Shown piece by piece: positions 3,901 through 6,900 of a DNA stretch of 64,000 nucleotides. Each line of letters starts with the position of its first letter. The first letter of the stretch is position 1. The DNA lies in the NCBI RefSeq assembly GCF_058153355.1, contig NZ_CM177019.1, one strand, 5' to 3'. The position numbers are program-made.

Positions 3901-6900
3901 CCACTTATTATTTACAATACGATAGGTTAAAGATTTAAATGTATACCAGTGACTTCCTGGAAGAAAAGAGTAAGCTTCATTAAGATTGACAGTAAATACC
4001 TTAGTTTCTCCAGAGGAAAGCTTTACCCATTCTGATTTTATATCACAATTATCGCCCATGCCAAAATAAAGCTCATCATTGGCATCATCCTCAAAAAAAT
4101 CACATATATTGGTTGCGGAAGGACGGAATTTCAGATAGAAACCACTTGTGGATATTAAAAAAGAATCCTCACATAAAGGAGAAAAAAAATAAGGCTCCGA
4201 TGTGTGTGAGGAGATAGGTAATAATCGTCTATGAATGAAATTTTCGCTCCCCCCCAAATTTGTAAAACTTATTTTTGCTAACACACGAGAGTCAATTTGC
4301 TTAACGGTTAATCTAACATCAACATCAAACATGTTACGATTTAGCAATTTTTCCTCGACTCCGTCAGTGTAATGTGATGACTCAAGTATATTGTCCTCAA
4401 GAGTCATCGAATTTAATTTTTGTTCAGAAACATATTGTGTAATAACCTCATCATTGCAGTATCCATGAAATGAAATAAACATTAGCACTGCAATCTTAAC
4501 TAATCTCAAAATACTTTTCAATATTGTATGCATTATTAAAAACCAGCGGGTCATGTTTTGATTTTAATTCTTTTGCATTGGCAATTTCTCTTTTTTTCCC
4601 AAATCGTTACTGCTTAATCCACCATAATACTGTTCTCCATCCCAGATAATAAAAAGGTGAGATAACTCATGGCATAATGTGGAGACTCGAGAGTTTTCTC
4701 CCGTTGGATTTTTACATGTGAAATTTTGTAAGATATCTATAGATATTCTGTCTCGATACTCTAACTTTAAAAGTTCAGCCTTCGACTTATTTTTATACTC
4801 ACTACTTTGTTATTGGGGCCGATTTAGATCTATATGAGTCGTCTGAGCAGCCGGTATACGGGCTGAGCCATTGACTAAATTGGTATAATTTTTAAAATTG
4901 CCATATATTAGTTGTACATTATCTTGCGTTCGAGTTTCAATGATCAAGCTATCACAAATCATGATCATTCTGTAAACCCCCTCTTTTATAAAACTATGTG
5001 CGTCAATATTCTTGGTTTGTGGAGTGAAGTTCCCATTATTATCTGACTTTTGACAAGGAGCATAGTGTTCCATTGTTATAATAGCATCACCTGGTAATCC
5101 AAATATATCTTCAAAATTTGTCTGATCTGCTGGTGTCCATGCTTCCAGATTTTTCGCTCTGATATTCAATACTCGCTTTGTTTCTTTCAAAGCAGGGGTT
5201 ATCATGTTGTAAAATTGATCAGTAACCTTTGCTTCTTTTTTACACACATTGCCTTTTTGAGTTACTCCTTGTGAACTTCCTTTGTTATTATTCATAAACA
5301 CCGCCCTCAATCATATCTATACTTTGATGCAATAGCCTGACTTTTATCGTCTGCTCACTGTCAGTGATAAATATTTCCGTATACCCATCCTTATCCGTTT
5401 CCCCTCGCGCTTGTGTGCCGTCCTCAAAAAAGGCAATGTAGCGTGTTTCTGAATACGGTATCCCGTCATCGTCTGTAAAATGAAACTGGAGGGTGTATTT
5501 CTCAGGTTCATCCTTATCTTCATTGTCGTTCCCAGAATCATTTCCATCGCCACCACCGACCCCGCCATTGCCTTGCCCGCCCTCTGCACCACCATCTTTA
5601 TCACTACCTTCATCCGTCAGTGCCTCCAGCACGCCCGGTTGCAGTGTCGGTACCGGAGTCCCCGGACTACCCCCACCATTCAGATTTATCTTCGGCCCCC
5701 AGGGAAAGATTACGAAAGCCCGCTCCCCGCAAGGACTGACGCCAGATACTTTCTGTCCATGGCTGCTTTTCGCATCTTACGTCTTAACCCTGCCTTGAAT
5801 ACCTTATCATTCGTCAAAATATTAATAGCGATGTGCCGTATCCCTGAAAATAATTCTGCTGCATTTCCTCTTCTTATTTTGCAGTCGTCTTCATTCATTA
5901 CCACGTCCAGACGCCAGTGCAGCTTATTCTCCACGTGCCCGTGGTTTCGGATTGCTGTGGCGAACTTCTCTGCGGTTAAATCAGCAGAACTGATATAATA
6001 TCTGACCGTCATTTCTGGCTCTTTCTTTTGTTCTGCTATTATGGACCGAAAGGAGACTGCCACGCATAATTTCTTCAGCCCTTTCCATTCAAACGTGAAA
6101 TCAATAAGTTCATCAGGGACATCGCAAACAATATGAAGACGGATTTCTTCTCTGCCGTGACTAAAATGCGAATTATTTAGTACAAAAAAAGCGGCGCACC
6201 TTGTTCTTTCCCAGATTCCTAATATGGCAACTTTAAGTTATCGCCGTCTATACTTATAGAAATTTCATCAGGGGTGACGTAAATAGAATTTTTTTCATCC
6301 TCAATTGCCCATAACTGATTAATAAAAAAGTGTTTTTTTTCATCTAATAACAAATTATCACATGTAGTAAAATTATTAATATCAAAAAGATCATCAGCAC
6401 AATTAATTTTTAAATTTAAAAAATAAAGAAAAATATTATTGATTGATTTGAGTGTAAACCACTTGTCATTAACAAATTTATAGCCAGATGATTTTATAAA
6501 ATAATAATTATCTCCTGGTATAAAGGCATACATATCATTTAAGGTTATACTCAACAAAAAACTACGACCTGGTTTAATAGTATTCCACCGTTCAGGATTC
6601 GTATTAATTTCAAAAGGACATGAACCACCTAAGTAGTCCAACGTGATATTCCCAGAGTTGATTCTGAATGGTTTTTTGCATATTGCATCATATTCATCTC
6701 CTTTTCCATCTTTTACTTTCATAGGTAGATAATATTTAGAAAAAAAATACGTGGTAGAGCTTTTGTTAGTAAAGGTTATGTTAGCAAAAATCCTGTTATT
6801 TTTTTTACTCATAGCTAATTGAGCATTGACATCCGCTATATAATTTATATGATTACATTTTTTCTTACACTCATCATAATTTTCGATAGGATAAATTAAT

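Follow-up and report, generated by a model that had tools for sequence, protein, structure and literature searches.

How two paralogous effector-immunity cassettes came to stand one behind the other in a single vgrG island, and whether the IS remnants at their borders had a part in this, is the question raised by the stretch of DNA analysed here (the window: 64,000 nucleotides of contig NZ_CM177019.1, RefSeq assembly GCF_058153355.1). Since the 1990s it has been known that E. coli Rhs-type loci contain remnants of H-rpt/ISAs1, an ordinary feature there, and the largest one in the window, IS-A, is already annotated in RefSeq. In the literature we found no direct treatment of ISAs1/H-rpt in vgrG islands, and published displacement models assign the distal step to "illegitimate recombination" or to an unexplained circular intermediate.

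Results

The window covers the E. coli ybbP-mnmH hotspot, the position of RhsD in K-12, which is here occupied by a vgrG island without similarity to K-12 RhsD DNA between 927 and 14372. The island contains two paralogous cassettes, each with the C-terminal region of a vgrG, a gene for an M35-like effector and an immunity gene (Table 1), and the layout reads IS, vgrG-eff1-imm1, IS, vgrG'-eff2-imm2, IS in a single orientation throughout. The start of eff1 and the stop of vgrG overlap, and eff1 is annotated as "peptidase M35" or "zinc-dependent metallopeptidase". The two effectors are 28% identical (E 1.6e-24) and the two immunity proteins 23% (E 2.8e-21). In the window eff2 is a pseudogene with a stop at 4810 and a 1-nt deletion at 4590; strain MFDS1022581 carries an intact version of 266 aa. 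The fragment vgrG' is homologous to 7845-8262 of the full vgrG (77% over 330 nt, E 7e-46) with an identity of 77-81% to the main gene, and its first codons encode the conserved GPKINLN directly after the right terminus of IS-A; the equivalence of 5376-5699 with 7939-8262 was measured on the near-identical copy L001. An intact vgrG is thus followed by a 5'-truncated one with a distinct effector-immunity pair, as in a displacement array.

Table 1. Features of the vgrG island, with positions in the window
Feature	Position	Strand	Description
IS-B	10535..10662	-	last ~128 nt of ISAs1-family element, right terminus intact (CATGGAAAGAT)
vgrG	7845..10283	-	full-length (812 aa)
eff1	7064..7855	-	M35-like zinc metallopeptidase effector, HEMSH motif
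imm1	6219..7040	-	putative cognate immunity gene, 273 aa, hydrophobic N-terminus
IS-A	5700..6214	-	515-bp ISAs1/H-rpt element with internal deletion
IS-A left arm	6162-6214		H-rpt positions 1-52
IS-A right arm	5700-6162		H-rpt positions 829-1291
IS-A termini	5700; 6205-6214		CAGGGAAAGA at 5700 (+ strand); CTGGGAAAGA = reverse complement of 6205-6214
IS-A transposase remnant	5710-6171		YdcC residues 226-378
vgrG'	5288..5699	-	displaced 3' fragment of vgrG
eff2	4495..5295	-	paralogue of eff1
imm2	3583..4554	-	paralogue of imm1, intact
IS-C	3407..3517	-	ISAs1 left-end remnant, terminus CAGGGATGATG at 3517

An earlier note on this DNA had placed a 5'-truncated ISAs1-family transposase exactly between imm1 and the orphan vgrG fragment, and both its family and its position hold. 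The right arm matches positions 829-1291 of the 1,291-bp K-12 H-rptE/ydcC with 98.1% identity over 463 nt (E = 0), window 6162-6188 corresponds to positions 26-52 of the same element (96% over 27 nt), and the outermost ends were matched to the K-12 ydcC ends by eye. The translated remnant is 96% identical to the corresponding YdcC residues and matches the NCBIfam profile NF033564 "ISAs1 family transposase" with E 3.3e-35 and 121.8 bits (curated cut-off 70 bits; the match spans profile positions 201-314 of 314, the C-terminal third only). Pfam DDE_Tnp_1 is matched too, and in three genomes RefSeq gives this very sequence the label "ISAs1 family transposase, missing N-terminus". The 5' truncation applies to the transposase gene only and not to the element, since IS-A retains both termini and has lost 776 bp from its interior. 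YdcC residues 1-225 are absent, including the motifs IAIDGKT (106) and ITTDAMG (169), and judged by motif position the first two catalytic Asp would be among the missing residues.

The left terminus of IS-A at 6214 is separated by 4 nt from the imm1 stop codon (6219-6221), and beside the right terminus at 5700 the vgrG homology begins at 5698/5699. There is no target-site duplication around IS-A, the flanks TTCGGCCCC before and ATTCCTAATA after the IS sharing no repeat, which fits a recombinant and not a simple insertion. The 515-bp derivative was only found together with the imm1 flank (220 genomes).

The second copy reported upstream of the full vgrG, IS-B, proved to be an ISAs1 right end. 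The two segments do align (10535-10662 against 5698-5825 within the window, 80.5% over 128 nt, E 8e-29), yet they are not copies of one element: IS-B is 79% identical to K-12 ydcC and 79-80% to IS-A and all E. coli ISAs1 copies, and at only about 80% is an older or different family member. It encodes the final 39 transposase residues (56-62% identity, tblastn E 1e-7 to 1e-9), and its right terminus (CATGGAAAGAT..., CATGGAAAGA) precedes the vgrG start (10283) by 251 nt. The neighbouring 10663-10800 was tried as a degenerate IS and rejected, with a local alignment score of 30 below the shuffle mean of 32.7. A third remnant, IS-C, had been overlooked; it lies 65 nt past the imm2 stop, is made of H-rpt positions 26-92 (about 84%) fused to 350-388 (90%), and completes a three-IS array around two cassettes. 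The anatomy is corrected accordingly: both ends with an internal deletion in IS-A, three remnants and not two, and one orientation.

The termini that remain (both in IS-A, the right one in IS-B, the left one in IS-C) align to the K-12 ydcC ends and have inverted repeats beginning CAGGG like the 1,291-bp reference. At 515, 128 and 111 nt they fall short of a complete element of about 1.2-1.5 kb with an intact DDE transposase, and are remnants of the ISAs1 family, not functional members. None of them can transpose, and IS-B and IS-C are single-end stubs. The copies flank both cassettes in direct orientation on the minus strand (IS-B and IS-A around cassette 1, IS-A and IS-C around cassette 2). 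They do not make up a translocatable unit: IS-B and IS-C have a single end each, IS-B is 20% different from IS-A, and there is no duplication. The unit common to other loci consists of the vgrG 3' part, eff1, imm1 and IS-A, and does not run from IS to IS.

Cassette 1, together with its IS, normally occupies the yncG-pptA island at the RhsE position, in about 500 E. coli genomes (506 with at least 80% coverage of window 5700-8400). In the four loci inspected at yncG-pptA/yddH (L002, L005, L006 and L007) the junction of imm1 with the IS left end is identical and the decay of the IS differs, and the internal deletion is common to at least O145:H28 and TC_EC10. Because junction and deletion are shared by genomes that carry the cassette elsewhere, they are older than its arrival here and are not local scars. 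Identity to L005 is at least 94% between 5700 and about 8700 of the window and falls to 65-85% further upstream; the vgrG part from about 8700 to 7845 is thus of the donor type of the RhsE-position locus, the rest being only 65-85% identical. At the opposite side similarity to L005 ends at 5699/5700, which is exactly the IS right terminus.

The proposal that the remnants are scars of the recombination that assembled the locus can therefore be kept in part. Remnants do lie at the cassette borders, a point strengthened by IS-C after imm2 and by equivalent remnants around the PAAR-vgrG cassettes that other genomes carry at the RhsE-position locus. The comparison of loci confirmed a similarity that stops at the IS right terminus, and only the joint of this terminus with vgrG' is local to this site; the imm1-IS junction, shared with about 500 genomes, and the deletion pre-date the arrival. 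IS-B is a diverged family member with at most a hypothetical part in the assembly event.

The IS right flank exists in three versions: pptA (K-12, O145), two other genes (TC_EC10) and vgrG' (the window). At the RhsE position the IS/pptA junction is alike in K-12 and in the cassette-1 carrier O145:H28, and K-12 and O145 part company exactly at the IS left terminus too. One IS with differing flanks and no duplication is what recombination between scattered copies of an IS classically leaves behind, and ISAs1 copies are present in 5,341 of 5,426 genomes with a median of 4 per genome. The pattern recurs at an rhsC-position locus, where an orphan RHS core fragment lacking its 5' part directly adjoins the IS right terminus. 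Six of the nine differences between IS-A and the O145 IS fall within the right-most 92 nt, a weak hint of a crossover inside the IS from a post hoc observation that appears against K-12 as well.

A search for intermediates in 5,426 complete E. coli genomes gave a full match to the junction query 5540-5780 in only three, and the cassette 2 query 3583-5699 was fully matched only in the same three, all with the finished arrangement. Among GTDB species genomes eff2 had relatives only in Buttiauxella loci (26-29% identity, without ISAs1), and the short-form locus of strain 2017-02-2CC has only 10762-11972 and 1-954 in common with the window. Between the window and MFDS1022581 there is a single difference in 5353-8209 and a divergence of 1.5-3.3% in the flanks, which we count as suggestive of repeated exchange of the cassette. 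The main vgrG of MFDS1022581 has vgrG'-like sequence across the truncation point (8210-8268), and this stretch is not predicted by a simple "IS inserted in resident vgrG" without extra exchanges. Intragenomic conversion via a duplicated cassette 1 was rejected, as ybbP-type genomes have one copy each.

Discussion

The above results provide a clear case of an imported T6SS effector cassette whose non-homologous end falls, to the nucleotide, on an IS terminus. Since similarity ends at this terminus and the flanks vary between genomes, involvement of the IS in the formation of the distal joint is very probable. We hold with moderate confidence that, for the evidence as a whole, the best explanation is that inert IS remnants offered portable homology through which cassettes were shuffled and C-termini displaced. 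A pre-existing unit, cassette 1 with IS-A fixed 4 nt behind imm1, entered the vgrG of the ybbP locus by one crossover within the conserved vgrG core, as the donor-type tract indicates. The other border of the incoming DNA is exactly the IS right terminus, now set against the 3' remainder of the earlier vgrG, and this remainder, vgrG'-eff2-imm2, was shifted downstream. The distal joint probably arose when IS-A recombined homologously with a further ISAs1 copy already present in the resident vgrG, the IS contributing portable homology and not an active transposase. On this comparison of sequences, decayed ISAs1 copies probably supplied the common sequence for the recombination that stacked the cassettes, and the IS would be a cause of the assembly rather than a fellow traveller of the cassette. 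At present the remnants are inert except as substrates for more recombination.

Joining by a transposase would give an identical terminus-precise joint, with an ISAs1 transposase provided in trans by a full-length copy acting on the IS-A right terminus and the left terminus, a surrogate end or the cassette as a circular translocatable unit as partner. The exactness of the joint, the two terminal repeats kept by IS-A, the presence of full-length ISAs1 copies in nearly all E. coli genomes and the direct orientation of the IS copies around the cassettes, like that of composite units, are in accordance with such an event. We nevertheless consider it unlikely: IS-A has no target-site duplication, and the imported tract passes the IS left end and runs through imm1 and eff1 into the vgrG core, where it ends in a region of homology with no recognisable IS-like end. 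The 515-bp derivative, always with its imm1 flank, gives no sign of independent movement, and H-rpt has not been seen to transpose, as PMC3032704 points out. The IS might instead have been a bystander, the ISAs1 pieces being passengers that had long ago inserted behind immunity genes, in AT-rich DNA, with stacking by homology-facilitated illegitimate recombination or by a circle of the type proposed by Jackson et al. that used vgrG homology alone. IS-free models have indeed been put forward for Rhs (PMC2935791) and Vibrio T6SS arrays (PMC5361080), the imm1-IS junction is one ancient insertion passed on with the cassette, and ISAs1 is absent from the Buttiauxella vgrG-eff-imm loci. This account also appears improbable to us, for a chance illegitimate joint must land within about 2 nt of the IS terminus, and the same terminus acts as a breakpoint in three contexts. 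A circle predicts a displaced fragment that starts upstream of the crossover and a near-identical core; in the window the donor-type sequence already sets in at about 8700, upstream of the point where vgrG' begins (8261 equivalent), and the identity of vgrG' to the main gene reaches no more than 77-81%. Given these crossover positions and this identity, simple circle integration is insufficient.

A present-day function of the IS right ends, as outward promoters or regulatory sites for vgrG (IS-B) and vgrG'-eff2-imm2 (IS-A), seems to us highly improbable. Each right end is directed towards the vgrG or vgrG' that follows it on its own strand, and imm2 is intact while eff2 decays and is therefore probably expressed from somewhere. 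A crude scan of the minus strand found no sigma-70-like site in 5700-5800, 10284-10534 and 10535-10662, a weak negative, and in the right-end segment IS-A and IS-B are 20% different.

Recombination between inert IS copies, the reading we favour, can be set beside several known systems. The K-12 H-rpt elements (ISEc1-ISEc5, ISAs1 family) include ydcC in RhsE, yhhI in RhsB and ybfD/ybfL in RhsC. IS-A resembles them in its 98% identity to the right 463 nt of ydcC, its CAGGG termini and its place downstream of the toxin/immunity part of a Rhs-type locus; it differs in being a 515-bp element with a 776-bp deletion accompanied by single-end stubs, and the carrier here, at the RhsD position, is a vgrG with a separate effector and not a Rhs protein. 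H-rpt is also found at junctions of Salmonella and Vibrio O-antigen clusters, where IS-mediated recombination proceeds via dispersed copies. The island has in common with these junctions an identical IS with flanks that differ between genomes and no target duplication, whereas its cargo is T6SS effector cassettes and every IS copy is defective.

The island shares with rhs displacement arrays (PMC2935791) and orphan rhs-CT/cdiA-CT modules (PMC3150448) the order of a full carrier with its cognate toxin/immunity pair and, behind it, a carrier piece truncated at its 5' end, whose toxin/immunity pair differs but belongs to the same family. Jackson et al. (2009) found the displaced rhs cores to be identical (PMC2935791), in contrast to the 77-81% between fragment and main gene here, and the near-identical core expected from a single-crossover circle integration is not seen in vgrG'. 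In further contrast to those arrays, vgrG' starts at an IS terminus, and the upstream start of the donor tract misfits a single circle crossover. The main texts of both papers (PMC2935791, PMC3150448) do not mention IS or H-rpt involvement. Sequential displacement of T6SS effector-immunity modules was described in Vibrio cholerae by Kirchberger et al. (2017; PMC5361080), and as there a horizontally acquired module is secured on its upstream side by homology within or close to vgrG, the older one having moved downstream. In Vibrio the old effector is usually lost and the distal joint was ascribed to illegitimate recombination, with no recombinase or IS implicated (PMC5361080), whereas the window retains the old effector and a vgrG piece and has an IS terminus as its distal joint. 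An IS-dependent distal joint is thus a modest refinement of the known picture; should it hold generally, the building of effector-immunity arrays and their exchange between rhs/vgrG islands would have a concrete mechanism that is open to testing.

More tentatively, and with more doubt than conviction, we raise the possibility that ISAs1/H-rpt is a general "downstream anchor" for polymorphic-toxin cassette displacement in E. coli. Cassettes would terminate in an H-rpt copy and their targets would be rhs/vgrG islands already containing one, where a cassette would be gained or replaced either by a crossover in the conserved carrier gene plus a crossover in the IS or by a circle of IS plus cassette that integrates at the resident IS. 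If true, this would fill in how the distal joint and the circular intermediate arise, a step left open by the Rhs and Vibrio models, and would account for the association of H-rpt with Rhs elements from the time these were first found. A 12-nt similarity past the IS end in rhsC loci of porcine ETEC, considered as a longer IS or a shared target, was at chance level outside CAGGG.

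Organization of the ybbP-mnmH island

Over its initial 17 kb the window corresponds to the E. coli tesA-ybbA-ybbP ... mnmH(selU)-allS region. The gap between ybbP and mnmH is occupied in K-12 by the RhsD element, to which no DNA similarity was found across window 927-14372. The island carries two cassettes of vgrG, effector and immunity genes, the second headed by a displaced 3' vgrG fragment (vgrG'), and three ISAs1/H-rpt pieces, all in a single orientation: IS-B (right end), vgrG-eff1-imm1, IS-A, vgrG'-eff2-imm2 and IS-C (left end). Distant paralogy links the two effectors (28% identity, E 1.6e-24) and likewise the two immunity genes (23% identity, E 2.8e-21), and vgrG' is homologous to the final ~415 nt of vgrG (77% over 330 nt). 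This arrangement was found in only three of 5,426 complete E. coli genomes, MFDS1022581, MFDS1019527 and N96, which are also the nearest complete genomes with 97-98% identity across the island.

Features of the island in window coordinates
Feature	Position	Strand	Remark
Group II intron	~11977-14331	-	complete-looking
Small ORF	11569-11784	-	71 aa
Small ORF	11116-11472	-	118 aa
Small ORF	10757-11065	-	102 aa
IS-B	10535-10662	-	ISAs1 right end
vgrG	10283-7845	-	full
eff1	7855-7064	-	M35-like metallopeptidase gene
imm1	7040-6219	-	putative immunity gene
IS-A	5700-6214	-	ISAs1/H-rpt element
vgrG'	5699-5288	-	3' vgrG fragment
eff2	5295-4495	-	second effector
imm2	4554-3583	-	second immunity gene
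IS-C	3517-3407	-	ISAs1 left end

Three ISAs1 pieces of different extent

The earlier note had assigned the sequence between imm1 and vgrG' to a 5'-truncated ISAs1 transposase, and the family assignment is borne out. Window 6162-5700 corresponds to positions 829-1291 of K-12 H-rptE/ydcC (reference set at 1,291 bp, CAGGG to CCCTG) with 98.1% identity; the remnant ORF scores above the curated cut-off of the NCBIfam model 'ISAs1 family transposase', covering only profile 201-314 of 314, also matches Pfam DDE_Tnp_1, and is labelled a partial ISAs1 transposase in RefSeq. The truncation holds for the transposase, which has lost its N-terminal part, and not for the element. Because the IS left end is present at 6214-6162 (positions 26-52 96% identical to K-12), with a terminus CTGGGAAAGA mirroring the right terminus CAGGGAAAGA, IS-A is a derivative of 515 bp that retains both ends and lacks 776 bp of its interior (H-rpt 53-828). 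Gone with this interval are YdcC residues 1-225, among them the motifs IAIDGKT and ITTDAMG, in which the first and second catalytic Asp are inferred to lie.

IS-B is likewise an ISAs1 right end, aligning with window 5698-5825 (80.5% over 128 nt, E 8e-29) and coding for the final 39 transposase residues. It had been taken for a second copy of the same element; the closest E. coli ISAs1 copies reach only ~80-83%, which makes IS-B a member of the family that is either old or foreign. IS-C, which had gone unnoticed, has the left terminus of an ISAs1 element, CAGGGATGATG, and a fusion of positions 26-92 to 350-388, and lies 65 nt past the imm2 stop, the counterpart of the IS-A left terminus 4 nt past the imm1 stop. 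It is followed by a hairpin, GGGGATTTTTAC...GTAAAAATCCCC.

Source and boundaries of the first cassette

At least 80% of window 5700-8400 is held by 506 genomes. In the four that we examined (O145:H28 RM12581, TC_EC10, CFIAFB20120266 and MS10858) the cassette occupies the K-12 RhsE position, with yncG on one side and pptA/yddH on the other, in the order PAAR-vgrG-eff1-imm1-ISAs1 remnant, and all four have the same junction of imm1 with the IS left end. The decay of the IS differs: O145 and TC_EC10 have the 515-bp form of the window, while CFIAFB20120266 and MS10858 have left-end positions 26-66 fused to an internal piece of 163 nt. Both the insertion of the IS behind imm1 and its internal deletion are thus older than the window arrangement. 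The interpretation in the earlier note is partly supported: the remnants do mark the junctions, and the joint of the IS right terminus with vgrG' is local, whereas the left junction and the deletion were inherited. Further ISAs1 pieces (positions 1-155, or 1-53 plus 548-1291) were seen upstream of PAAR-vgrG in four RhsE-position loci (L002, L005 of TC_EC10, L006, and L007 at 11750-12519), so the cassette is IS-flanked there too.

The window is 93-100% identical to TC_EC10 from 5700 to ~8700 and 65-85% identical farther upstream in vgrG; its match to O145 is a single colinear one of 2,203 nt that ends at 5699. The imported DNA thus has one boundary at a crossover within the conserved core of vgrG and the other exactly at the IS right terminus, past which vgrG' starts at the codons of the conserved GPKINLN motif. 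Compared with MFDS1022581, only 1 nt differs in 5353-8209 (2.9 kb; vgrG 3' end, eff1, imm1, IS-A and the start of vgrG'), whereas the island DNA on either side diverges by 1.5-3.3%, which indicates that lineages have recently exchanged the cassette horizontally. Here the upstream boundary is at ~8210, not ~8700. Exchange of the cassette, by homologous recombination in vgrG, has thus occurred more than once.

How the right-hand joint may have formed

IS termini recur as breakpoints. The same IS is found with three right flanks: pptA in K-12 and O145, where the O145 right end abuts pptA exactly like full-length ydcC in K-12, two unrelated genes in TC_EC10, and vgrG' in the window. K-12 and O145 share the right flank and diverge exactly at the left terminus. 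In a porcine ETEC rhsC-position locus an orphan RHS core fragment, truncated at its 5' end, lies immediately next to the right terminus of a full-length ISAs1. At the TC_EC10 locus (5347-6902) two hypothetical genes come after the IS remnant in place of pptA. A short form of the ybbP-mnmH locus in 2017-02-2CC shares only window 10762-11972 and 1-954, and has an ISAs1 internal piece (positions 290-362, at 9922-9993 of that locus) ~10 nt beyond the shared-segment boundary at window 10762.

An IS very probably contributed to the right-hand joint, and a random illegitimate joint landing on the IS terminus is unlikely. We favour homologous recombination between dispersed ISAs1 copies, acting as portable homology, because the neighbouring sequence, left or right, varies around an identical IS, no target-site duplication was found in the flanks of IS-A, the other boundary of the imported tract falls within vgrG homology, ISAs1 copies occur in 98% of genomes (median 4), and the 515-bp derivative is seen only with the imm1 flank. 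We infer a two-step history, in which an ISAs1 copy would have interrupted the resident vgrG, and the interval would then have been replaced by an incoming vgrG-eff1-imm1-IS fragment by two crossovers, one within the vgrG core and the other within the IS, restoring an intact vgrG and leaving vgrG'-eff2-imm2 as an orphan. No intermediate was found among the 5,426 complete E. coli genomes and the GTDB species genomes, and the main vgrG of MFDS1022581 has vgrG'-like sequence across the truncation point, which under this history needs extra exchanges. Transposase-mediated joining in trans is a possible second IS-dependent route. A circle integrating by one crossover, with vgrG as the sole homology (PMC2935791), fits poorly, as the donor tract starts upstream of the vgrG' start point and the identity of vgrG' to the main vgrG is no more than 77-81%. 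A crude scan gave no evidence that the IS ends contain an outward promoter.

The feature first noted is thus real, slightly mis-described and of a known kind: H-rpt/ISAs1 is a long-known part of E. coli Rhs elements (K-12 ydcC, yhhI and ybfD), and IS-A was already annotated in RefSeq. Orphan arrays of carrier fragment, toxin and immunity genes are well documented at rhs and cdiA loci and in Vibrio T6SS clusters (PMC2935791, PMC5361080). The main texts of two displacement papers (PMC2935791, PMC3150448) say nothing of a role for IS or H-rpt elements, and the Vibrio study attributes the distal joint to illegitimate recombination, implicating no recombinase or IS (PMC5361080). The wider value of the locus lies only in the hypothesis that H-rpt copies act as a general downstream anchor for cassette displacement.

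Other features of the island

In the window eff2 is a pseudogene (premature stop at 4810, 1-nt deletion at 4590), whereas MFDS1022581 has an intact copy of 266 aa; both have an intact imm2. Effector decay with the immunity gene kept is the pattern expected for a displaced effector. The three small ORFs between ybbP and IS-B are AT-rich and possibly represent immunity genes orphaned from an older cassette; none has an NCBIfam match, a Pfam scan of the 102- and 118-aa ORFs gave no match, and the 102-aa ORF has a CxxC...CxxC pattern of zinc-ribbon-like spacing. The group II intron encodes an RT/maturase (ORF 12054-13796; TIGR04416, E 6e-111), matches Rfam RF02012 (14279-14132) and RF00029 (12049-11973), and lies 47 nt past the ybbP stop beside REP-like sequence; it is absent from the otherwise colinear MFDS1022581. 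A perfect microsatellite at 3013-3171, (GCAGTA) x 26.5 and x 2.5 in MFDS1022581, falls within a minus-strand ORF that has no annotation (2811-3272); the predicted product has a hydrophobic N-terminus followed by an (Ala-Thr)n tract encoded by the repeat. The MFDS1022581 locus has an IS2 insertion (4352-5580) at the equivalent of window ~2177-2182, where the window has none.
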